A program made the position numbers and the translations under genes. From Promethearchaeota archaeon (GTDB lineage Archaea > Asgardarchaeota > Hermodarchaeia > Hermodarchaeales > Hermodarchaeaceae): a stretch of DNA of 61,414 nucleotides. The stretch spans positions 1-61,414 of the forward strand of contig JBHLPH010000013.1 of the NCBI GenBank assembly GCA_048939625.1, written 5' to 3'. The notes beneath the pieces were generated by a model. The model ran no database searches, was not told the DNA's origin, and saw only the letters and a list, made by a program, of their open reading frames with translations. Below are positions 4,296 through 16,847 of this stretch, piece by piece (position 1 is the stretch's first letter; each line of letters starts with the position of its first letter).

Positions 4296-4928
4296 ATGGA
4301 TAGCGGAGAAATTCACCCTAACAATGACCAACGATCAACGCTTCCAGTATATCCTGTATACATCTTTGAAAGAACCTGCAAAGAAATCTTCAGCTTCTGC
4401 CTGAAGGAAGCATCAGGGCCCTCACGAAGTGAAGCACTTGGAGTCATTCTTGGATTTCGACGTACTTGGAACGGAAAAAAATACATTCGCGTTACTGATT
4501 GGGCGACAGGTCATGTCGAAGCCAGTCTCGCACATGCTCGCTTCACACCTGAAGGTATTCTCGAATATCGCCTTGCACTCCATGATCGCTATGGAAATAA
4601 TCCTCATGCCCCTCGAGTCGTTGGGCTCTGGCATTCTCACCCTTTTGGAGGTGACCCCCATTTCTCCTCAACAGACCTAAACACCTTCTTCAACACTCCT
4701 TTCTGTGCAGAAGGAAACATCTTCTTCTTAATTGATCCAATTAGCCAAATCTTCAAAGTGTATATGCTTCGCTCCCGCCCTGAAGAACCTGGGCTTCAAC
4801 TTGACCAAGTCGAATGGTGTACTTATCGACCCTCTGTTCCCCTTGGTGAGGACCTTTCACGTGAAGACACTGATATGACGAATGAGGAGGAACCTTCCCA
4901 TGACAAAGAAGAAACCAACTCCGGTTGA
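4296..4928 (+). CDS. JAB1/MPN+ (JAMM) metallo-isopeptidase
   Basis: EALGVILG and WHSHPFGGDPHFSSTD give the full E...HxH...S..D JAMM motif. Confidence 0.9.
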   Translation: MDSGEIHPNNDQRSTLPVYPVYIFERTCKEIFSFCLKEASGPSRSEALGVILGFRRTWNGKKYIRVTDWATGHVEASLAHARFTPEGILEYRLALHDRYGNNPHAPRVVGLWHSHPFGGDPHFSSTDLNTFFNTPFCAEGNIFFLIDPISQIFKVYMLRSRPEEPGLQLDQVEWCTYRPSVPLGEDLSREDTDMTNEEEPSHDKEETNSG

Positions 4929-5766
4929 TCTCCAATTCTTCGAAAAAGACCAACATGATCGCACGCGTCGGTGGCTAGGTAAAACCAACCTGGAGAAAAT
5001 CCAGCAATCGAGCGTTCTCATGGTGGGGGCTGGTGCAGTAGGGAATGAAGTATGTAAGAATCTTGGACTTCTTGGAGTGGGGAAAATCATTGTAGTTGAC
5101 CCTGACAAGGTTGCTGCTTCAAATCTGAATCGTTGTGTCTTTTTTAGACCAAGTGACCACGATGTCACGTTTAAGGTCGATGCGATTGCTGAACGATTAC
5201 CCAATCTTGCAACAGACACAATTGTCGAACCACATCCTGTTCCTATTCAAGATGCTCCAGAATCCGTATGGAACGTGGATTTAGTGCTTGTTGGAGTCGA
5301 CAATCATTATACTCGGTATTTATTGAATGCAAAGAATCTTAGTTTAGCCCCACCTCTTCCTGTTATCAATGGGGCGATGGGAAAGGACTTCGTCTCTGTT
5401 GAGGTCTTAGCTCCACCTAACACAGCATGTTTAGTCTGTTCCTGGAGTAAAACTTTCGTTGACCATGTAGTAGCCAATGAAGTTCGAACTCGCTGCGATC
5501 CCTTCTTCGTAAGGACTATTCCTCAGTTTCCGATGATTAGTTTTATCACATCGATTGTTGGAGCGGTGATGTCATGGGAAGCTACCAAGGTACTCGTAGG
5601 ATTAGAGAACTGGAAGCAAACTGGAGAATGGCAAGATGAGTTCGAACCTGCTGTTGGCCGGTTTATTCAATATAATTTGCACCACCATAAGGTTCTGACG
5701 GGACCCATCTTGCCAAATCCGAGATGTGCTGAAATTTTCTGTAGAGACAAGCGGAAGCACGCCTAA
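4900..5766 (+). CDS. Ubiquitin-like activating enzyme E1 (ThiF/UBA fold)
   Basis: VGAGAVGNEVCKNL, DPDKVAASNLNR, VGVDN, Zn sites CLVC and C-terminal CAEIFC, candidate catalytic Cys in RTRCDP; overlaps the JAMM gene. Confidence 0.9.
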   Translation: MTKKKPTPVDLQFFEKDQHDRTRRWLGKTNLEKIQQSSVLMVGAGAVGNEVCKNLGLLGVGKIIVVDPDKVAASNLNRCVFFRPSDHDVTFKVDAIAERLPNLATDTIVEPHPVPIQDAPESVWNVDLVLVGVDNHYTRYLLNAKNLSLAPPLPVINGAMGKDFVSVEVLAPPNTACLVCSWSKTFVDHVVANEVRTRCDPFFVRTIPQFPMISFITSIVGAVMSWEATKVLVGLENWKQTGEWQDEFEPAVGRFIQYNLHHHKVLTGPILPNPRCAEIFCRDKRKHA

Positions 5767-5770
5767 CAGA

Positions 5771-7375
5771 CTAGATTAAGCCTATGGTTTTCTGCCAATA
5801 CGTGGAGGTTGGTTTATGATCCGCCCAGAGTCGAATATTCAACGTGACCTTAGGTGCTGCGGTGGGCATTTGGATGTTTAACTGTAGGTTTATCGGGGAT
5901 TGTAAACGGGGTGCAAACGGCTCTATAGCTACGACCTGATCCATTAAGCCATCAGAAATAGTGGCGGTCATTACCATCTGGTCTAACGGATGTTGCCGGC
6001 TTGTTATGGGAATCAATGCCACTTTTAAGGGAATTTTGTTACCTCGAGGTATAGCGTCAGGAATTTGAACTTGGATTTCAGCTGGCGCTGCCTGAAGCTT
6101 GGGGTGCACTGACTCAGGTACACTAACTACGCGTTTCACTTTCCATCCTGTTTGTATTTGTGGTTGAGACCGTCCACCTTTTTTTCCATCAATGCTAGAT
6201 GTTTGATAATGCCAACTTACTTTGAATTCTTGACGAATTCGTGGGTCCATCCAATTTCCAATGATTAGAGGTATATGACGGTTTGTAACTCCTAGTAGCC
6301 CCATGGCTCCATGCCATGTCGGATCAACTGGAATCCATTGCCCACGAATCCAAACCTGACTCCACGCATGGCGTTCCCAGGCTTTGCCATCGAAGGCGTA
6401 TCCTGCTTCGAGACGTGCGGGAATTTTATTTGCTCGACATAGTGCTGTGAACAATGCTGCATATTCTGTGCAGTCGCCCACGCGTTTCTCAATAGCGTAT
6501 GCTGCTCCTCTTTCATGTTCTTGGCGAACATACCGCATTTTATTTGTAACCTTTTTCATGGCTGCTTGGATGTATTGGATAGGTGTGACGTTTTCTTCAG
6601 CGATATCTCGGGCTAAATCTTTGATGAGGTGATGGTGCGATTCGATGAAGTTTTCAGGTTGAGTAAATTTCATTATATTTGCTGGAATCGAGGTTGAAGG
6701 GTTGGTTGTTGGTAGAACGTAACGAATTGCCCGATTTCGAACCAGGACTGTGTATCCACAGGTGAAGGTTTCTCCTGCGGATAACTTTTTACACAGAAAG
6801 CGGAACCAGCGATTGCCGATCAAATCATTTTGTTGGACTCCAGTTCGTGGCGAGAGCTTTACGTTTAGTATATCTTGGCGTGGAGGTAATGAAGGGGGCG
6901 AGGCGATATTGACTTGCATATTGTTAATTGGACTCTGCATCGTATTCGTGACCGTTGCAGAATAATTGACGCGATGAACGACGATGGGGGGATGTCCACC
7001 TTCTAATAAAAAACATCCCAATACAAAGTGGTCCTCTGGAGGTCCTTGATGCGGGTATTTATCCACAGCTAGCTTAATGCGCGTTTCTTGAAATGCTACA
7101 AGAATCGTGTAAAACCCTGAAAGGAGCATTTTGTCCAAAGGCAATGCAAATTTACCTATATTTGCTGGTCCAAATCGGAAAGGAATCTTACTGATTGTGC
7201 GACCAAAGGGATCGATGATGTATAAAGCTCCACTATCAATTTTGATATTAGAACCAGCTTTACTTTTCCGTGTGAGTTGGATGGAAATCTTTTGACCTGC
7301 TTTTACGCAGGGAATTCCGTCTCGACGTGTTTGTGCGCTGATTTTCAGAGCGACTGGGAGATTACTCGTCATCAT
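5771..7375 (-). CDS. Transglutaminase-like (Cys-His-Asp) protein with beta-rich flanking domains
   Basis: GDCTEYAALFTALCRA, HAWSQVW and WIPVDPTW; ATG at 7375/7372 overlaps the upstream stop. Confidence 0.85.
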   Translation of the reverse strand: MMTSNLPVALKISAQTRRDGIPCVKAGQKISIQLTRKSKAGSNIKIDSGALYIIDPFGRTISKIPFRFGPANIGKFALPLDKMLLSGFYTILVAFQETRIKLAVDKYPHQGPPEDHFVLGCFLLEGGHPPIVVHRVNYSATVTNTMQSPINNMQVNIASPPSLPPRQDILNVKLSPRTGVQQNDLIGNRWFRFLCKKLSAGETFTCGYTVLVRNRAIRYVLPTTNPSTSIPANIMKFTQPENFIESHHHLIKDLARDIAEENVTPIQYIQAAMKKVTNKMRYVRQEHERGAAYAIEKRVGDCTEYAALFTALCRANKIPARLEAGYAFDGKAWERHAWSQVWIRGQWIPVDPTWHGAMGLLGVTNRHIPLIIGNWMDPRIRQEFKVSWHYQTSSIDGKKGGRSQPQIQTGWKVKRVVSVPESVHPKLQAAPAEIQVQIPDAIPRGNKIPLKVALIPITSRQHPLDQMVMTATISDGLMDQVVAIEPFAPRLQSPINLQLNIQMPTAAPKVTLNIRLWADHKPTSTYWQKTIGLI

Positions 7376-7757
7376 TTGGGCCTGCTGAATCTGTATGAGG
7401 ACTGGATTCCGGTCCTTCTTCATCTGGCAGAATAACTACCTTTCCACTTGGTTGTGTTACACGTCTACGTGGAACGTCAGCAAGAATGGTCACACTGGAG
7501 CTTCTTTCTAGTTCTGTAACCTCTGAAGAGTCACGTGGTCCCAGAAATCGTGTAAAATGTGGGGAATGAGGTTCACTGCCTTGAATAATCGCGCCAGGGC
7601 AAGTGTTCTGACCGGTTTCAAGAAAAAGGGTTCGGCAGTTTGGACAAATATAACTGCCACAGGTTGTGCATATCCACCACTGGCTCCTTGCTTCAACAAG
7701 CGAAGTTTGAGTATCACAAACCATGCATTTGAAATGAGACGCTCCGTGGACACTCAA
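7362..7757 (-). CDS. RING-like Zn-finger protein with a disordered acidic tail (candidate E3)
   Basis: CMVC...CTTC-x4-CPNC-x11-CP...H; start overlaps the upstream stop. Confidence 0.7.
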   Translation of the reverse strand: MSVHGASHFKCMVCDTQTSLVEARSQWWICTTCGSYICPNCRTLFLETGQNTCPGAIIQGSEPHSPHFTRFLGPRDSSEVTELERSSSVTILADVPRRRVTQPSGKVVILPDEEGPESSPHTDSAGPNDDE

Positions 7758-7966
7758 TCTTCCTGTTCCTCCTGGTTAGCAGGTTTTTGAATTCGATGTA
7801 CCTTAATAGAAAAATGTGGAGAATAATTCGGTGGGCGTTCTTCCTCAAAGGGAATTTCCCTCTCTTGTAAGATTATAATGCGATTCTTCTTCGGCTGGTC
7901 TATTGCGGATTGGTCTTCATTATCAGATTCCTGCTTTTCTTCCTTCTCAGGGGGAGTATCCGACAT
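7754..7966 (-). CDS. Small acidic, probably disordered protein in the Ubl operon
   Basis: Fills the gap between the E2 stop (7969) and the Zn-finger start with 2-bp spacing and a 4-bp overlap; shares SPHF and V/I-x-I-L motifs with its neighbours. Confidence 0.65.
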   Translation of the reverse strand: MSDTPPEKEEKQESDNEDQSAIDQPKKNRIIILQEREIPFEEERPPNYSPHFSIKVHRIQKPANQEEQED

Positions 7967-7968
7967 AA

Positions 7969-8742
7969 CTAGTTCTCCTTCGAATCCTCTGCCTCATCAA
8001 GAATCCGAACACTTGAGACCTTCTCTGATGCATCCAGAACCTTGGGTGATCTTACAGTGGGTTTCTGTTGTTTTTGCTGAGGACCAAGAATCTGGACGCG
8101 TCCTCGTCGAGGAGTTGCTGGTGATCCCAATTGATGTCGGGTCTCCCAGAGGCGATCAAGAGTTTCTACAATATTGTTCGTGTTCTGCTCATACCATGCC
8201 ATTGCTGTGCTGTTAAGCCCATGGTCGGATTGAAACTGAGATGGCGGTTCCACACGATCCGGTTTCAGTAAAACAAAGAAGGGGAGATCTTCTAAAATCC
8301 GGTCGAGTTCACCACGAACCGAATAACACGCATGACCAGTCCCACTGGCTGCTAATCGGGGATGAAAAAGCGGTGTCTCAGCGGCAGGGCGAATGGTTCC
8401 GATATTTTGAGGATATTCACGGGGTAAATCAAAAACAAACCGATGTTCATATCTGATGGCAGTTTCATCTGTCAAAGAACGGGGTTGCCGAATTATCCCT
8501 GGGAGGTTCCGTATAACGAACCGAATTCGCTTGTATGCCCCGTCTCGATACCTAGCGATGATTGCCACAGAAAAATCACGATTGCTCCACATGGTGTTCT
8601 CACGTATGGGAGGGTCTGGATTCCAACCCCTACGACCATACAAATTATTCATTGTATCAAAGAATGTTTGGATTTGGGTTTCCACACGGGCGTTGAAGAG
8701 TTCTGTTGAGAAGACTGGTCGGGTCATGGTTGGATCCCTCAT
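7969..8742 (-). CDS. Ubiquitin-conjugating enzyme E2 (UBC fold)
   Basis: FVFDLPREYP, TPLFHPRL, GHAC (catalytic Cys) and LNSTAMAWY follow the UBC pattern; alternative start at 8727. Confidence 0.8.
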   Translation of the reverse strand: MRDPTMTRPVFSTELFNARVETQIQTFFDTMNNLYGRRGWNPDPPIRENTMWSNRDFSVAIIARYRDGAYKRIRFVIRNLPGIIRQPRSLTDETAIRYEHRFVFDLPREYPQNIGTIRPAAETPLFHPRLAASGTGHACYSVRGELDRILEDLPFFVLLKPDRVEPPSQFQSDHGLNSTAMAWYEQNTNNIVETLDRLWETRHQLGSPATPRRGRVQILGPQQKQQKPTVRSPKVLDASEKVSSVRILDEAEDSKEN

Positions 8743-8771
8743 TCACCCATTCATGGGTCAGATCTGAAATA

Positions 8772-9092
8772 TTATTTTCCCACTTCTGGAACAACATCAA
8801 GGAGGAAGAATTCATCGTCGGTAATCTTAGGCTCAAGTTCTCCAAAGGTTACTCCTGGACTTAGGCGAGTTGGTTCAGGAGCTTTGCGAATTAGGACGAA
8901 TTCTGCTCGTTGATCACCGATTTTCGCCTTCGCCCAATCGTCGATGCTCACTCCCTCATCACGGGCTTGTTGGACCAAAGTGCGGATAACCTCTTCAACT
9001 CTAGTATCCTCGTCAATGCCAATTCGAAATTCCTTTTGGCGGGGTTCAACGTCGACGATGATTGAGCGCCAAAAACCTTCTTCGTTACTCAT
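8772..9092 (-). CDS. Ubiquitin-like (beta-grasp) modifier precursor ending VG-K
   Basis: Ubl-like pattern IGIDEDTRVEEVIRTL, FVLIRK, LSPGVTFGEL, ITDDEFFLLDVVPEVGK; AGGTGA SD; first gene of the E2 operon. Confidence 0.7.
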   Translation of the reverse strand: MSNEEGFWRSIIVDVEPRQKEFRIGIDEDTRVEEVIRTLVQQARDEGVSIDDWAKAKIGDQRAEFVLIRKAPEPTRLSPGVTFGELEPKITDDEFFLLDVVPEVGK

Positions 9093-9334: not shown

Positions 9335-12232
9335 ATGAACACTAGACATGAGACACCACTTTCTACCTCACAAGTCGTATTCCGTAGCATCCATCTAGTG
9401 AATTTTGTAATTCATCGTGATACTACAATTAAATTTGATACCGCTCCTGTTGTGCTAATCACTGGATCAAATGGAAGCGGAAAAACTCTCATTCTAGATG
9501 CACTCCTCCTTGCCATAGGTATTGAATCCCGTCGAGCTCAACGTCAGCGTAACTCTGCCTTCATTGGGCGCTTTGGTAAATATGCTGAAGTAGAATTATT
9601 ACTGAATAATTTTCAACTTAATGGACGCCGTGTTCTGAGGAGTCCTGATCCGGCACTCGCAAAGGTTCTGGACACTGATGAAGTGTCGATTCGTCTCCGA
9701 ATGCATGACACGAATCGCATTTCTTATTGGGTAAATGGGAAGCGATCAGTTAATGGACACCAGATTGCCCGAAAAGATATTCGAAAACTCTTCCAAGCTG
9801 CTGGTGTCTTTGGTGATTCACCCTTAGCAGTCACCGAAGCCGAAACACTCGACCATTTTGCATCTCAATCTCCGCGAAGAAAATTCGAAACTCTGTTGAA
9901 TGAAACCGGACTTAGGAATTGGATGGAAAAACTTGAAGAAGCCCGACTGCTTGTATTGCAAGCAAAAGCGAACGTCAAGCCACTCGAATACAGAATCCGC
10001 CACGAAGAACAACGACTTCAAGTATTGAAAGCCGCTTATGAAGCTTTTCAACAAAAGCAGCAACTTCTACAGCGACTAAAAGAGCTTGATATTGAAGCAG
10101 CATGGGCTGAGGTTGCCTATCGTGAAACGCTTGCAAATCAACTCCAATCACAAATCTCTGTACTTGACCATCAACTTGAAACTGAAAATGTAAAATTAGC
10201 AAAATTAGATCAACGTAAAGCCGATCTAGCTGACAAGTTGACAGCGATTGAAAAGAAACGTGAAAAACTTCATTCGAGAATGGATTCACTTCGCGATGCG
10301 CAAATGCAAGCTCAGGGTCACCGACAGGGATTGGAAAACGAACTTAAGGCCTTGCAGTTTCGGACCAAACGTTATTCGAAACGGCAAAAGCCTCCTAAGA
10401 CTAAGATTGAGACGCTTCAAAACGAATTAACGGCATTTGTCACTGATCGAGATAGTCTCGATGATGACCTTGCCCAAATCCGACAAGATATCGCATCTAC
10501 AGAAGAAGTTCTCTTTACTCAACCTCAACGTTATCCACACTTTGAGGAAACCGTTCTTCGCGCTTGCATTCGATACCGCTCCGAATTGGATAAGTTGGCT
10601 CTCTCCGATTCAGTGATTGGCCCATTATTCACGCTTATCCGAATGAAACCTGAATATTCCCAATATGAAACCGCAGTAAAGTTAGCATTAGGTCGGTACA
10701 CATACGCCTTTATCGCCTTGAATAGAGATGTCTTCGTTGAAGCAAAGAACCTCTACGACCGGTTATGGCTTCACGAAAGACCAGATCTTGTCGTTGCTCG
10801 TACGAATCCTACAACTGCGATAACGAAAGATCGACCCGCTGTCTCCTCACCAGTGATTGGCTGGGCCGCTGACCTAATCGAAGGGGATGTTTACGCCATC
10901 AGCTTTCTTAGCCGAGTTGTAAACACTGCCATCGCTGAAGAAGGGGCTGATCCCAACATTCTTGTGGATGCTTCTCAACAACTCAATGGGAACATTATCA
11001 CAAGCGAGGGCTCAAGTCATTATCTTCGCATTGGGGCTTTTGCACGACCTCCACGCCCTGTAACAGTCAACTTAGATGTCACACTCCCTGAACTGGGATT
11101 GGTCCAAGATTCTGCTGATGTCCGTCGCCAACTCCGAGAATTCCGGGAACGAGAAGCGAAGTTGATGCGAGATCGTATGCGGCTCAACTCAGAAATTAGT
11201 CAGCTGCGATCCACACTTCAAGACTTGCAACAAGATTCTGCTGGACCTCTCTCTGCTGAAGAAAAAAATGCGATCATTTTGGATTCTCAGCAGCGCGAAT
11301 CGGAACTTCATCAACAAATGCTAGAACTTGATACTCAATGTGATGCCTTAAGTCAAGAATATCAAGATTGCAATTCGGATTTATCCCCCCTGAATTCCCA
11401 ATTGCAAAAAATTACCAGTCAAATCCAAAGCGTGGAATCTCGACGCTCAAACCGTCAAACAATAATCACGCAGATTTCAATCGAACTTCACCAACGAGAA
11501 GATGAAAACGAACATCTTACGACTCAATTGAAAGAATTTCGAAAAGCTGCCAAATTGCTAGGGGAACGGCCTGAAGTCGTGCGAGAACCCACTCCAGTTC
11601 GTGAAGAGCAAATCCAGATTCAAGCCATGATTGAAACTATCACAGCTACATCTGAAGATCGACAAGTCTTTGAAGAACAAGAAAAAGTCGTTTCGCAGTT
11701 ACAGGAATACCTCAAACAACGTCAGCAACACTTAGAAAATCTCATGACGGACGTGGATCGCCGGCTTCTCGAATGGCGGCGCCAACTCGAAGAAATGGTC
11801 GAAACGCTTAATCATCGGATGAACCAGTTACTTAGTCATTTTCTCAAACAAGTCAAATTGCTTGTTCGTTTTCCTGATGAACCAAGTCGCGCAGAACTGC
11901 ATCTCCAATTAGCCATTAATCGTAAAGGAGATTGGCGTACTTATCAGGAAATGTCGGGAGGTGAGAGGGTCCTAGCGACTCAGACTTTCATTTTAGCACT
12001 TCACACCTTGGTTAAGAGTCCCCTACATGTGATTGATGAGTTTACTCAACGACTTGATGAAGCTAGCCGAGCAGCGATTCTCGGTGTGGTTCAGCGTACC
12101 TTAGATTTGACTCAACAAGACGCCTTGATTCATCCTCAATTTCTTCTTATGGCTCCCTCCACTGTTGGCTTACAAATTCCAGAGACAATGCATCACGTGG
12201 TTCTAATTAAAGGACAGGTGAAAACCAAATGA
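9335..12232 (+). CDS. SMC5/6-like structural maintenance of chromosomes ATPase
   Basis: Walker A GSNGSGKT, two coiled-coil arms, hinge VIGPLFTLI...ALGRYTYAFI, signature MSGGERV, Walker B VIDEFTQRLD, Pro at the H-loop position (QFLLMAP). Confidence 0.88.
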   Translation: MNTRHETPLSTSQVVFRSIHLVNFVIHRDTTIKFDTAPVVLITGSNGSGKTLILDALLLAIGIESRRAQRQRNSAFIGRFGKYAEVELLLNNFQLNGRRVLRSPDPALAKVLDTDEVSIRLRMHDTNRISYWVNGKRSVNGHQIARKDIRKLFQAAGVFGDSPLAVTEAETLDHFASQSPRRKFETLLNETGLRNWMEKLEEARLLVLQAKANVKPLEYRIRHEEQRLQVLKAAYEAFQQKQQLLQRLKELDIEAAWAEVAYRETLANQLQSQISVLDHQLETENVKLAKLDQRKADLADKLTAIEKKREKLHSRMDSLRDAQMQAQGHRQGLENELKALQFRTKRYSKRQKPPKTKIETLQNELTAFVTDRDSLDDDLAQIRQDIASTEEVLFTQPQRYPHFEETVLRACIRYRSELDKLALSDSVIGPLFTLIRMKPEYSQYETAVKLALGRYTYAFIALNRDVFVEAKNLYDRLWLHERPDLVVARTNPTTAITKDRPAVSSPVIGWAADLIEGDVYAISFLSRVVNTAIAEEGADPNILVDASQQLNGNIITSEGSSHYLRIGAFARPPRPVTVNLDVTLPELGLVQDSADVRRQLREFREREAKLMRDRMRLNSEISQLRSTLQDLQQDSAGPLSAEEKNAIILDSQQRESELHQQMLELDTQCDALSQEYQDCNSDLSPLNSQLQKITSQIQSVESRRSNRQTIITQISIELHQREDENEHLTTQLKEFRKAAKLLGERPEVVREPTPVREEQIQIQAMIETITATSEDRQVFEEQEKVVSQLQEYLKQRQQHLENLMTDVDRRLLEWRRQLEEMVETLNHRMNQLLSHFLKQVKLLVRFPDEPSRAELHLQLAINRKGDWRTYQEMSGGERVLATQTFILALHTLVKSPLHVIDEFTQRLDEASRAAILGVVQRTLDLTQQDALIHPQFLLMAPSTVGLQIPETMHHVVLIKGQVKTK

Positions 12233-13020
12233 TTACTAATGACACTTCCGCATTCCTTCGAGCGTTTCCACGCCGCAAAGCTTGGTTTGACACCTTCCAG
12301 CATAATTACAAACATAACCGTATTACACGTTATGGAATGAAGAGCGTTGTAATCACTCTCTGGAATCTAACAAAGAAATATGAAGTAGCCCTTAAACAGC
12401 ATGATGTTGTACCAGTGAAAGAAGCGGAGATTGACCGTGAAGAAGTCGCCGATGCATTTCGTGTTCTTGATACGCCTTGGGAAAGAAACCTCGATGGCCG
12501 CTTTTACCACACACTGGCCAAAATGCAGCACAACCGCGACTCACAATTAGCTGCACCTGAAATTGCACCTGAAGAATGGATTTCTCAATTTGCTACAGAG
12601 GTGAAAAGGCGAGCCACGCCTCTTCTGTTCCTAGTTAACCAAGACCGGACCATCCCCCCCTTCGATTTACCTCCAGGGGATACCCCAGTCACCATGGATG
12701 AGGCTCCCTCTACTGAAGATCGCCAAGCTATGCAAAAGCATCGGATATTCTATGATGAGATAACAATCAAAACGCTTGATGCACGTCGAGCTTCAATTCT
12801 GAAACGGCTTAAAGGAAAACGGTACAGCTATACTGCATTAGCAGAGATACTAACCAATTGGGAGTTAGATTTACTAAGTCAAATGGTCCGTGATAACATA
12901 CTTCCTGCCACATTTGAAAAAACAGCAATCATATTTCGGAATCCCCCATCACAATCCAATCCGGTTTTGACTGCGGTAGCTATTGCTGCGAAAAAGCATG
13001 AGGAGGTTCGATCGCAATGA
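12229..13020 (+). CDS. Putative kleisin (Nse4/ScpA-like)
   Basis: ATGA overlaps with both SMC and KITE genes; helical N-terminus, Pro/acidic linker, and C-terminal winged-helix-like segment ILKRLKGKRYSYTAL...LLSQMVRDNI...AIIF. The family call rests mainly on position and layout. Confidence 0.55.
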   Translation: MITNDTSAFLRAFPRRKAWFDTFQHNYKHNRITRYGMKSVVITLWNLTKKYEVALKQHDVVPVKEAEIDREEVADAFRVLDTPWERNLDGRFYHTLAKMQHNRDSQLAAPEIAPEEWISQFATEVKRRATPLLFLVNQDRTIPPFDLPPGDTPVTMDEAPSTEDRQAMQKHRIFYDEITIKTLDARRASILKRLKGKRYSYTALAEILTNWELDLLSQMVRDNILPATFEKTAIIFRNPPSQSNPVLTAVAIAAKKHEEVRSQ

Positions 13021-13664
13021 CCTCGAACCCCACCTCATCGCACCCAGGACCCTCATCTGGTGAACAAACCGAGGAAGAAGAATACGAACAACGCCATCTT
13101 TTAGGGCAACTCTTTGCTGCCCTTACTGCTCGCTTTCGCAATGAGGAAGGACAACTCAGCATTGGAGTGAAGCGACAGGATTTACTTGAAGCTCTTCATG
13201 TCAATAAGGTCGGACTAAGCCGTTTACTTGATTTACTTCGACAACAGATCGCTCCATTGGGACTGGAATTAGTAGAATACCGATTAAATCGAGATACACT
13301 CTATTGTGTCCGAACCCTATATGGTGTTCCAGGAGAACTCACCGATCCTGAATATGCTGTCCTTGGAGTCATCATTTCAACAGTAGAAAGAGCCAGCAAG
13401 AATCGTAGACCCCGACGAGTAGCTACAAAAGAAATTGAAACCATTCTCGTTGCTCGAGGTCGCCTTTCACGATATCAACTAGATAAAATCATGCGGCGTC
13501 TCATTGAACTCGGTTATCTTACACGTACAACGAAACGGATTGCATATGGTCCACGATTAGAACTCGAATTTGATTCTGAACGACGTGAAGCCATCGCTAA
13601 TGCTGCAACCCTATATCTTGCAGGAGCCATCACAGACAAGGAGGAAGAATCGAATGAAACTTGA
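13017..13664 (+). CDS. KITE subunit (Nse1/Nse3-MAGE/ScpB-type tandem winged helix)
   Basis: IAPLGLELVE (WH1), and IMRRLIELGYL...YGPRLELEF (WH2, GPR..E motif of Nse1/Nse3). Confidence 0.75.
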   Translation: MTSNPTSSHPGPSSGEQTEEEEYEQRHLLGQLFAALTARFRNEEGQLSIGVKRQDLLEALHVNKVGLSRLLDLLRQQIAPLGLELVEYRLNRDTLYCVRTLYGVPGELTDPEYAVLGVIISTVERASKNRRPRRVATKEIETILVARGRLSRYQLDKIMRRLIELGYLTRTTKRIAYGPRLELEFDSERREAIANAATLYLAGAITDKEEESNET

Positions 13665-14115
13665 CCTCTCAACTGTTGGCATCAGTTGTGTAGCCTGTGG
13701 CTCCCGAAGCACACTGGAACAGGCAATCCACGATGGTTGGCACCAATGCCTTCGATGCCAGTTCTTTATTGATCCTCAATGCCTACAAATTGTCAAAAAT
13801 ACCATGGGTGGTGTTTGTCCATCATTCAGCCAGGGTGTCTCTAGACACCTTATCCAAGAGGCTGATATTCCCTCGGAACAAATCCTCATTTTTGTGAAAG
13901 ACCAATACCAAAAGGGTCGCGTAGGGACCATCGTCGACTCGCTCTTCTACACCAAACCTTCCTATCTCGAAAAACCGCGACACGAAAATCCACAACAATC
14001 TGACGCCGAAGAAGCTTTGACCCGTGAAGAAATCTGGCAACGGTATGGACTTGTCTTGGTACAACGGGCACAAGGTAAATGGAAAACTTGGGAAAAAGTG
14101 GGGAGCACAGGATAA
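13654..14115 (+). CDS. RING-like Zn-finger protein, last gene of the SMC operon
   Basis: CVAC...CLRC-x4-DPQC-x11-CP...H; ATG at 13654 after GAGGA, overlapping the KITE stop. Confidence 0.7.
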   Translation: MKLDLSTVGISCVACGSRSTLEQAIHDGWHQCLRCQFFIDPQCLQIVKNTMGGVCPSFSQGVSRHLIQEADIPSEQILIFVKDQYQKGRVGTIVDSLFYTKPSYLEKPRHENPQQSDAEEALTREEIWQRYGLVLVQRAQGKWKTWEKVGSTG

Positions 14116-14116
14116 T

Positions 14117-15103
14117 TCAGATTAACAGTTCTTCCCCTAACTCCAATTTTGCTAGAATTTTATCCACCAATTCACGGGCTAATTGTTTAGTATTTTTAGA
14201 TTCTGTAACAGGTTCATCCTCGATATCCGCAATGAGTTGAGGTAAGCCAGCAAGTTTTCGTATGATACCCGAAATTGCGTGCTTCGCTACTGATACTTCC
14301 GAGCCTCCCGATAAGAGAACAACCAAGTGTCCGGAACACACTTCTTCCGCGGCTTGAAGTAAGATGTCGGTCATCGCTGGAAACGCCCGAAGGGAGAGGT
14401 TAAACCCACCATAATCCAAAGCGTGAGCGTCATGTCCCATATTCCATAGAATCATATTTGGTTGGATTCGACGGGCCCAAGGAATCACCAATCGTCGCAT
14501 CGCTTCAACAAAAGTTTCATCGCTACTATTACTGGGAAAGGGAACATCCACATGGCGCAGGGTTACGGTATCAAAGCTTTCGCGAAAACTAGCTTCGAAA
14601 TTCAGGTGGTATACTCCTTCGTCGTCACCAAGTGTATCCCGTGTGCCATCTCCGGGATGGGGATCAGTATCCACAATGAAAAATCGTTTGACTCCATACT
14701 TCTGTTGGAGCTGTCGAACAAGTAACGCTGAATTATTGTAATAACAAAAGCCCCAGAATGAGTCCCGACTCGCATGATGACCAGCACACCCAGTAAAGGC
14801 AAAGGCGTTCGCCGCCTCTCCGCGCCAAACAGCTTCTCCCGCTCTCACTGCAGCTCCCCCCGAAACTAGGGACGCAGGGTCGTAACCTGATCCTTTCACG
14901 CGTTTGATATGATTTGGTGTATGAACCGATAATAATAGCTCCTCTTTTACTTCAGAGGCTTGTTCTACTTTAACTGAAGAAGACGATAAGGTGCCTGTCT
15001 GCTCAAGGTAATCGAAAGCTGGTTGCACTCGACCAGCCAGAACCGGGTATCCTTCAACCGCCATCAAAGGATGATAAATTACCAGAGTTGGCTTCTTTTT
15101 CAT
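14117..15103 (-). CDS. Histone deacetylase superfamily (Zn-dependent) protein
   Basis: GHHA...GFCYYNN, DTDPHPGDGT and GHDAH motifs; SGGS in place of EGGY. Confidence 0.88.
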   Translation of the reverse strand: MKKKPTLVIYHPLMAVEGYPVLAGRVQPAFDYLEQTGTLSSSSVKVEQASEVKEELLLSVHTPNHIKRVKGSGYDPASLVSGGAAVRAGEAVWRGEAANAFAFTGCAGHHASRDSFWGFCYYNNSALLVRQLQQKYGVKRFFIVDTDPHPGDGTRDTLGDDEGVYHLNFEASFRESFDTVTLRHVDVPFPSNSSDETFVEAMRRLVIPWARRIQPNMILWNMGHDAHALDYGGFNLSLRAFPAMTDILLQAAEEVCSGHLVVLLSGGSEVSVAKHAISGIIRKLAGLPQLIADIEDEPVTESKNTKQLARELVDKILAKLELGEELLI

Positions 15104-15174
15104 CACAGGTCACATCCAAATACAAGGCAACAAAGGATTTAACAGGATATGATGTTCTACTCAACAGCTTCAGG

Positions 15175-16383
15175 ATGGGAAAAATTTTGGAGATTCGAAA
15201 AATCACCAACAAAGAACGAAGTACGCTGATGGATCTATATCGATATGCCTATACCGAATGGACGGATCAGCCAGTGAAAGATGAAGAACTAGACGAAATT
15301 ATTGTCGAGGAGACATTGGGTATATTTGATAATGGACAACTGGTGTCATCTCTTCGCATTCATGATTTTCAGCAATCCATCCGAGGGATCTTGAAAAACT
15401 GCGGAGGTGTTGCTGGAGTGGCTACCTACCCAGAAGCTCGAACGAAGGGGTATGTTCGTCAGTTGATGCGGGCAGGATTCAAGCAGATGCACGAGGATGG
15501 ACAATCTGTCAGTATGCTTGATCCATTCAAACCGAGTTTCTATGAGAAATTTGGATATGTTACCGCAAATGCCCCCTACATAGTAGAAGCACCAATCAAT
15601 CATCTCCAAGCGTCGAACCTCGAATCCTCTTCCTCTGAATGGACCTATGAGCGGCTTCGAGCGGTCGAGGTCCAAGAACCCTTTCTCAAATTTATTCGAG
15701 AGGTGGGTCCTAAGCAATACCACGGCTTTATCATTTTCAGAACGATAACACCCGCGATGTGGAAACAGCGCGTAAAAGACAGTCTGGTCGTCTTCATTCG
15801 ACATAAGGGGAAAATCCAAGCGGTGTGCAGGTATCGAATCAAAGGTGAACGTAGCTCAGGGCGTTGGCAGGCTAATTTAACAGTCATAGATAGTCTCTGG
15901 CGTACCCGCGAAGCACGGAATCACCTCTTCTATTTTCTATCACGACACCAAGATCAAATTGACAATATAATCATTCACGCTCCTTTTGAAACGAAAGTTG
16001 AACACTGGTTCAAGGATATTCGACTCAAGGTAGATCGTAAAACCCCCTGGATGGTTCGAATTGTTGATGTCATCAAAGCTTTCGAAAAACTTCCAGGGGT
16101 AGGTGAAGATATCATTACCATTGAGGTGTCCGATGCTGACTGTCCTTGGAATCACGGAATATTCTCCCTGACATCCGAAAAAGGCTCGCTACATCTCGCT
16201 AAAAGCTCAGGGCACCCCGTTGTAAATGCTTCTATTGAAGCTTTATCCTCTCTAGTGTATGGCACCCAACCACTAGAAGAACTCGAATTTGAGGGTAAAC
16301 TCACAATTACCGAGGAATGGGCTAGACATACCCTGCATCGATGGTTTCCCCCGCTCCCCCTGTATAATGTTGTATACTTTTAA
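15175..16383 (+). CDS. Eis-like GNAT acetyltransferase with C-terminal SCP2 domain
   Basis: VAGVATYPEARTKGYVRQL, FYEKFGY, MVRIVDV and DCPWNHG motifs; aromatic C-terminus. Confidence 0.88.
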   Translation: MGKILEIRKITNKERSTLMDLYRYAYTEWTDQPVKDEELDEIIVEETLGIFDNGQLVSSLRIHDFQQSIRGILKNCGGVAGVATYPEARTKGYVRQLMRAGFKQMHEDGQSVSMLDPFKPSFYEKFGYVTANAPYIVEAPINHLQASNLESSSSEWTYERLRAVEVQEPFLKFIREVGPKQYHGFIIFRTITPAMWKQRVKDSLVVFIRHKGKIQAVCRYRIKGERSSGRWQANLTVIDSLWRTREARNHLFYFLSRHQDQIDNIIIHAPFETKVEHWFKDIRLKVDRKTPWMVRIVDVIKAFEKLPGVGEDIITIEVSDADCPWNHGIFSLTSEKGSLHLAKSSGHPVVNASIEALSSLVYGTQPLEELEFEGKLTITEEWARHTLHRWFPPLPLYNVVYF

Positions 16384-16454
16384 TGAAATCATAACACGAG
16401 GTTTTATAGGCAGAAACATCCTTGGGTTGATTCTCACATTATCAGGTGTGTTCC

Positions 16455-16847
16455 ATGGGCTTTGAAATACCGCTTGATAAAATCCGTGAAGCGATTCAAG
16501 CACACTTAGCTTTTTCATCCGATCCCACTACTCGGACAATCACTCTTGAATTCAAAGGAACCATTTATGAAGAAATGCCCTTTGGCGACATGCTTGAAGA
16601 TGAAGAAGGACTGAAACGGATGGCTAAGAACTTCATGGACGAAGAGATCAAATATACCGCTGAACCCCTGCCAGAAGGGAAAGGCGTTATCCTGCATTTT
16701 CAAACTGATGAAGACTTCCAGAAAATGTACAACTTCATCGACGGAATCATCAATGGGGATTTACTGCAGGAACTGATGACCAAGGTCATGCAATCGATGT
16801 TTTCAGCAATGGATGATGACAGCTCAGAATTTGATAATACAACCTAA
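16455..16847 (+). CDS. Hypothetical acidic protein
   Basis: AGGTG SD before ATG 16455; coding-like composition. Confidence 0.65.
   Translation: MGFEIPLDKIREAIQAHLAFSSDPTTRTITLEFKGTIYEEMPFGDMLEDEEGLKRMAKNFMDEEIKYTAEPLPEGKGVILHFQTDEDFQKMYNFIDGIINGDLLQELMTKVMQSMFSAMDDDSSEFDNTT

Follow-up and report, generated by a model that had tools for sequence, protein, structure and literature searches.

The region analysed here (hereafter the window) is a 61,414-nt stretch of DNA from a Promethearchaeota archaeon (Hermodarchaeaceae; GCA_048939625.1, contig JBHLPH010000013.1, positions 1–61,414), the plus strand of which carries four closely packed genes in the order SMC, kleisin candidate, kite and RING-like gene. 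The last of these (13654–14115, +) encodes a protein of 153 amino acids (aa) in which a predicted two-zinc cross-brace domain (residues ~5–80) is followed by a helix and a C-terminal motif (residues 120–150). This protein is a member of an unnamed and undescribed Asgard family, defined here, for which there is no Pfam or NCBIfam model. Many Asgard genomes possess a gene for a RING-type protein right after the kite gene of an SMC5/6-like operon, often followed by a complete module of E1, E2-like, ubiquitin-like (Ubl) and JAB genes. Our literature search returned no paper on a RING-type gene beside archaeal SMC5/6-like kites.

The kite/RING-like gene pair and its operon

The kite gene (13017–13664, +) encodes a 215-aa subunit (P0003) that was modelled using AlphaFold2 (AF2) as a tandem winged helix (predicted local distance difference test (pLDDT) score 79.8) and compared with known structures using Foldseek and VIA-align, an aligner independent of Foldseek. 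The best Foldseek matches were MAGE-G1/Nse3, archaeal ScpB, Nse3 and Nse1 (E values 1e-4 to 8e-4), while the best whole-length match in VIA-align was 7dg2_A from the Nse1-Nse3-Nse4 complex (Z 11.2, root-mean-square deviation (rmsd) 4.0, 159 residues), followed by JetB (Z 9.6), ScpB (Z 9.5) and a chain of the Smc5/6 holo-complex (Z 9.4). Chain A of 7dg2 is taken to be Nse1 on account of its length and its likeness to 5hvq_C, the aligner output itself carrying no statement of identity. On the basis of these matches, we therefore take 13017–13664 to be a genuine kite whose modelled fold leans slightly to Nse1/3. Sequence searches with the kite returned no named family: single-sequence phmmer against the PDB gave chance matches only, a profile search of PDB sequences gave nothing meaningful and kite members matched only generic MarR/helix-turn-helix models in Pfam. 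The Pfam model SMC_Nse1 (PF07574) gave no match in direct scans, nor genome-wide at E ≤ 10. A preliminary description of this DNA had the tandem winged-helix kite ending in YGPRLELEF; the fold stands, but the motif marks the end of the second winged helix, beyond which ~30 residues (a helix and an acidic tail) lead to the C-terminus of the protein.

Profile searches of 301 genomes of the phylum detected the RING-like protein in 65/301 and the kite in 59/301, the same families carrying both. Of the 59 genomes that possess both, representing eight families, 56 have the RING-like gene immediately after the kite gene and on its strand; in the three exceptions the pair is found on different contigs of fragmented assemblies. 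The pair is intact in locus L025 even though the SMC and kleisin genes are on the opposite strand; in a Lokiarchaeota metagenome-assembled genome (CR_4, L017) the kite lies ~5 kb upstream of the RING-like gene, with ABC/FtsX genes between them. The RING-like gene is associated most tightly and most generally with the kite gene, and frequently but not universally with the Ubl module.

In the window, the RING-like gene starts at ATG 13654, in a different frame and 11 bp short of the end of the kite gene, and the open reading frames (ORFs) 13017–13664 and 13654–14115 bear out the earlier report of an 11-bp overlap with a separate downstream gene. Such an overlap with a change of frame is superficially reminiscent of a frameshift, raising the question of whether an assembly or annotation error has split a single fused kite-RING gene or produced a spurious ORF. 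This carries a negligible probability: two ORFs are present in dozens of genomes, the RING-like family is conserved down to ~25 % identity and the close homologues of the window protein are all 150–153 aa in length. Among 17 related loci, the genus of the window has a junction of −11 nt, its sister genus one of −1 or −4 nt and the remainder one of +20 to +30 nt, with the frame relation varying among loci and one locus displaying an in-frame stop with a 30-nt gap. Run contigs from three studies, including strain variants with 8–18 substitutions, span 13654–13664 without inserted or deleted letters. The varied junctions and indel-free contigs refute the artefact explanation, and the kite/RING-like split is real, as the preliminary description had supposed.

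A RING fused C-terminally to the kite, the arrangement of Nse1, was found in no lineage, all of which have two ORFs. When the RING-like profile was searched against 1.84 billion representative proteins, the 39 clusters returned comprised proteins of 89–192 aa, save one of 397 aa, and contained no member fused behind a kite. Kite-side searches likewise revealed no kite-RING fusion, and a hunt for longer proteins (400–2000 aa) was empty, which is weak evidence; the natural fusions that the preliminary description had suggested looking for among homologues were thus not recovered. The 397-aa homologue (P0072; L019, 3431–4624) has the domain at its N-terminus, followed by ~300 residues without a kite or any recognisable domain, and its locus has no adjoining SMC operon. 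We also considered whether 102-aa 'short forms' represent a natural N-terminal truncation, but rejected this possibility, since codons for the Cys-rich part lie in frame further upstream (L001) and these forms are start-codon miscalls.

Upstream of the pair, 9335–12232 (+) encodes a divergent SMC ATPase of 965 aa (Pfam SMC_N, 1.4e-21, and a weak SMC_hinge match) that scores far under the canonical SMC cut-off. The 263-aa kleisin candidate (12229–13020, +) fills the slot between the SMC and kite genes, its start and stop overlapping the neighbouring genes, and its homologues occupy the same slot in all related operons examined. Pfam ScpA and Nse4_C gave no match to this protein and its assignment is therefore positional. 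A canonical SMC-ScpA-ScpB operon is present on another contig of the same genome (C12:56877–61660); the window therefore holds the genome's second SMC complex, with its SMC being a second paralogue that is SMC5/6-like by context. The second SMC complex of TACK and Asgard archaea has been assigned to the SMC5/6-related lineage (bioRxiv 10.1101/2024.01.07.573240; PMC8665677), and the SMC5/6 assignment of the window operon leans on the first of these studies.

Proposed zinc ligands and fold of the RING-like protein

The eight proposed zinc ligands are encoded at 13687–13848 (+), with the spacing C12-x2-C15-x16-C32-x2-C35-x4-D40-x2-C43-x11-C55-P56 followed by H65. This agrees with the pattern first described (CxxC...CxxC-x4-D-x2-C-x11-CP), which holds over 35 family members. 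All six Cys, P56 and H65 are kept in close homologues. In an alignment of 35 diverse homologues (23–85 % identity to the window protein), C32 and C35 never vary, C43 and C55 hardly at all, and position 40 is Cys except in the window's clade, which has Asp, and in two other sequences. Those two (P0063 and P0067) have jointly lost ligands 12/15/40/43 and retained 32/35/55/60. H65 is present in 26/35 sequences, none of which has C60, and the 9/35 that lack H65 all carry C60, lending support to the earlier proposal of a variant RING with a distal His as ligand 8.

The joint loss of ligands 12, 15, 40 and 43, together with the mutual exclusivity of H65 and C60, argues for a cross-brace with the ligand sets {12,15,40,43} and {32,35,55,60/65}, rather than for sequential fingers. 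The pattern fits two interleaved zinc sites, pairing ligand pairs 1+3 and 2+4 as in RING, PHD and FYVE domains, so that in the window protein site 1 would comprise C12, C15, D40 and C43 and site 2 would comprise C32, C35, C55 and H65. Covariation across the alignment supports H65 as the probable ligand 8, alternative to C60. As nearly all homologues have Cys at position 40, Asp40 appears to be derived in the window's clade and not an echo of the His of Nse1. An Asp at ligand 5 has precedent in the 'RING-D' variants of plants. Ligand 7 is followed by Pro in 23/35 sequences, with Leu being the commonest alternative.

The C-terminal motif, EE-W-x3-G-x-V-x-V-[KR]-R-x2-G-[KR]-[FW]-x-[TAS]-W-E (14011–14103), is among the best-conserved parts of the family, even at 25 % identity.

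Residues 4–80 of the RING-like protein were modelled by AF2 at pLDDT 82–92. Nearly all VIA-align matches to the model were RING, U-box or ZZ domains, including the Prp19 U-box (Z 5.9), APC11 (Z 5.4), RNF4 (Z 5.3–5.4, rmsd 2.5 over 58 residues) and TRAF6 (Z 5.2), while the RING of Nse1 (2ct0) scored Z 4.3, no better than many other RINGs and U-boxes. Shape matches in the ESM-Atlas were to RING and B-box clusters; a feature search of the same resource returned no named cluster (best score 0.87). A domain-only profile searched against the PDB gave sub-threshold matches that were nearly all RING E3s (RNF4, 0.0026; cellulose-synthase (CesA) RING, 0.009; NOT4, 0.049; also TRIM21, CBL and TRAF6), and single-sequence phmmer against the PDB gave chance matches only. 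In Pfam, single members reached sub-threshold values with zf-RING_4 (2.7e-4), zf-RING_UBOX (5.5e-5) and zf-C3HC4 (3.8e-4), individual members also touching the zf-UDP, FYVE and B-box models, and the window protein itself matched C1_1 only (0.03–0.09). The Pfam model of the Nse1 RING, zf-RING-like (PF08746), gave no match in direct scans, nor genome-wide at E ≤ 10. Nse1 is absent from the sequence match lists of the domain and low in the fold lists, results with which distant homology is still compatible. Together, the matches point to a RING-type cross-brace with a ligand series nearest to that of C4C4 RINGs and to RING/U-box domains generally, not to Nse1 specifically.

The Ubl-conjugation genes linked to the operon

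In the window, a Ubl set (4296–9092) lies divergently upstream of the SMC operon. It comprises genes for a JAB protein (4296–4928, +; Pfam Prok-JAB and the PADLOC JAB model), an E1/ThiF protein (4882–5766, +; Pfam ThiF and the PADLOC E1-E2 model), a transglutaminase-like protein (5771–7423, −; Pfam Transglut_core), a 131-aa paralogue of the RING-like protein (7362–7757, −; family profile E 1.1e-9) with all-Cys ligands plus His, a small acidic protein of 70 aa (7754–7966, −), an E2-like protein with an HPR...GHAC motif (7969–8742, −; ESM-Atlas features, UQ_con clusters, score 0.94) and a 106-aa Ubl candidate ending in VG-K (8772–9092, −). PADLOC returned no defence-system model for the kite, kleisin, RING-like, E2-like or Ubl proteins. 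The RING-like paralogue is kept near the operon across the genus and in locus L021.

In L021, the genes lie on one strand in the order SMC-kleisin-kite-RING-like-JAB-E1-Ubl-E2-like, with a RING-like paralogue and then a transglutaminase-like gene further downstream; the cluster of the L021 RING-like protein carries Heimdallarchaeota labels. In L023 and two further loci, the SMC-kleisin-kite-RING-like operon is followed by JAB and E1/ThiF. JAB, E1, Ubl and E2-like genes are found directly after the pair or within ~6 kb of it in at least four of the eight families that possess it. Families f1, f5, f27 and f29 contain homologues of the E2-like protein, which in f1 and f27 are usually encoded 2–6 kb from the RING-like gene. 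There are no Ubl genes near the pair at L020, a locus of family f4.

A canonical, eukaryote-like ubiquitin locus is also present in the same genome (C45:2220–5547; PF00240, 4e-11; two UQ_con matches, 4e-34 and 2.5e-16), and the organism therefore has two distinct ubiquitin/Ubl systems. The RING-like family profile matched nothing at this canonical locus.

Proposed role and relationship to Nse1

We propose, with moderate confidence, that the RING-like protein, which is conserved and Asgard-specific, serves an archaeal SMC5/6-like complex as a separate accessory subunit of RING type, probably with an E3-like role, and is as such a functional counterpart in trans of the RING of Nse1. In the second SMC-kleisin-kite operon, the RING-like gene would share a transcript with the kite gene and be translationally coupled to it, and the N-terminal ~75 residues of its product would form a binuclear cross-brace RING-type domain, followed by a helix and a conserved C-terminal hairpin-like motif. 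The protein would bind the kite or the complex as a fourth, accessory subunit and act as a RING-type E3 or adaptor, bringing a Ubl-charged E2 to the complex or to its chromatin substrates. This E2 could be supplied by the neighbouring non-canonical E1/E2-like/Ubl/JAB set or, in lineages without that set, by the canonical Asgard ubiquitin system.

Several observations weigh against this proposal. Binding of the RING-like protein to the kite, the complex or an E2 is something that we infer, and the Z scores of 5–6 are modest for a VIA-align search of 48,000 chains. No Foldseek match of the model to the PDB was obtained at E ≤ 0.001, no RING model of Pfam reaches its cut-off for the family, and the ZZ, B-box, FYVE and PHD folds are close alternatives to RING. 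The C-terminal half was modelled by AF2 at pLDDT < 50; its conserved motif may fold only with a bound partner. Furthermore, the largest family with the pair (f4, 26/29 genomes) returned no E2-like homologue when queried with the window's E2-like protein, meaning that an E3 function with that Ubl system cannot be general. Co-folding of the kite with the RING-like protein scored 0.00, a result that carries no weight either way.

Some of these observations would suit a non-catalytic zinc module, i.e. a ZZ-, B-box-, FYVE- or PHD-like adaptor of the SMC complex that is structural or binds nucleic acids or proteins, with no part in Ubl transfer, and lies beside Ubl genes for other reasons. We judge such a module unlikely, even though some members fit ZZ, B-box and FYVE models and RING models about equally well, the pair occurs in f4 with no linked E2-like gene, L020 has no Ubl genes nearby and the Nse1 RING is itself structural in the stability of Nse1/3/4 (PMC8750328). 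Arguing against it, the Ubl genes lie beside the RING-like gene in rearranged layouts, on the same strand in L021, L023 and L024 and divergently in the window, a second paralogue sits inside the Ubl arm beside the E2-like gene and the residue after ligand 7 is most often Pro, with Leu next.

A further possibility is that the two genes constitute a true 'split Nse1', with the Asgard kite and RING-like genes being direct ancestors of Nse1 by fusion and the RINGs being homologous by descent. Here, the gene order (kite, then RING-like) matches the domain order of Nse1 (two winged helices, then RING) in 56/59 genomes, including the Heimdallarchaeota-labelled L021, the best whole-length match of the kite is the Nse1-Nse3-Nse4 complex chain (Z 11.2) and the ligand spacing is compatible with the C4HC3 RING type (PMC8750328). 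On the other side, no sequence signal joins the family to Nse1 or its RING, 2ct0 scores under generic RINGs (Z 4.3) and the kite's Z for Nse1 exceeds those for JetB and ScpB by only ~1.5. Cys is the ancestral state at ligand 5, and ligand 8 is oddly spaced, at +5 (Cys) or +10 (His). In a canonical RING, ligands 7 and 8 form C-x2-C. Searches from both the RING and the kite side returned no fused intermediate. On balance, this line of descent seems rather unlikely to us.

The preliminary description saw in the Cys spacing a specific link to Nse1, a claim that finds no support: ligand 5 is Cys in most of the family, neither SMC_Nse1 nor zf-RING-like gives a match and 2ct0 scores Z 4.3. Its reading of the gene order as that of Nse1 in two polypeptides is upheld, the order being found in at least eight Asgard families; with no specific link to the Nse1 RING and no natural fusion, the 'pre-fusion Nse1' that it deduced from this order is plausible but unproven. 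We hold only tentatively, and at low probability, the broader idea that the Asgard kite and its coupled RING-like gene are the unfused ancestor of Nse1, such that the archaeal ancestors of eukaryotes possessed an SMC5/6-type complex equipped with both a RING ligase of its own and a dedicated Ubl module. Were it true, the Nse1 RING would not be a eukaryotic invention. In a recent survey of how SMC complexes evolved, the Nse1 RING is described as a eukaryotic innovation absent from archaeal kites (bioRxiv 10.1101/2024.01.07.573240). A RING partner of the SMC5/6-like complex may predate eukaryotes, while descent of the Nse1 RING from the Asgard family is hypothetical. Should the RING-like protein prove to be a subunit, SMC5/6-type machines were already paired with RING-mediated protein tagging before eukaryotes arose, and the Asgard complex could serve as a simple prokaryotic model for the function of the RING in SMC5/6, which is still debated for Nse1. 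The origin of Nse1 would then also become testable, as gene fusion versus independent recruitment.

Comparison with characterised systems reveals partial likenesses. The Nse1 RING (C4HC3) stabilises Nse1/3/4 and acts with Ubc13/Mms2 (PMC8750328). Shared with Nse1 are a tandem winged-helix kite and a predicted two-zinc cross-brace RING-type domain in what would be an SMC-kleisin-kite complex of the SMC5/6 lineage, with the kite first and a ubiquitin-type link. In contrast to Nse1, which is one polypeptide, there are two polypeptides here; the ligands are C4-D-C2-H (ancestrally C7H or C8) rather than C4HC3, the spacing to the last ligand is +10 or +5 in place of C-x2-C, an extra C-terminal region of ~75 residues is present and there is no detectable sequence similarity to Nse1 models. 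The family is also reminiscent of Nse2/Mms21, in that the latter is a separate RING-type subunit with the SMC5/6 complex, and SP-RING domains are among the structural matches (Z 4.2–4.8). An SP-RING has one zinc, and Nse2 attaches to the arm of Smc5 via its N-terminal helical domain. The family described here differs in keeping eight ligand positions, for two predicted sites, and in having its RING at the N-terminus. Like the small RING finger protein (srfp), whose gene sits among those for E1, E2, Ub and JAB/Rpn11 in archaeal ubiquitin operons (Caldiarchaeum; PMC5654768), the window protein is a RING-type protein that is small and stands alone, but its family is linked to an SMC operon, through the kite gene, and to Ubl/E2-like genes of a non-canonical type. 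Finally, the all-Cys spacing CxxC-x(13-16)-CxxC-x4-CxxC-x11-C is that of C4C4 RINGs (NOT4 and the cellulose synthase zf-UDP), which are among the best sub-threshold sequence matches; ligand 8 is nevertheless displaced here, and the matches fall short of significance and come from an unrelated biological context.

Other genes were noted around the operon and its relatives. At 14117–16383 in the window, a histone-deacetylase-family gene (−) is convergent with the RING-like gene and is followed by an Eis-like GNAT acetyltransferase gene (+); both keep their positions in the Thor-type loci L001 and L002. In L025, an actin-family gene (10820–11905) lies ~2.3 kb from the kite/RING-like pair. In L024 (GCA_054014235.1), a large TPR protein with a Pfam Cohesin_load match is encoded at 15940–16480, ~7.5 kb downstream of the SMC-kleisin-kite-RING-like-JAB-E1 genes.

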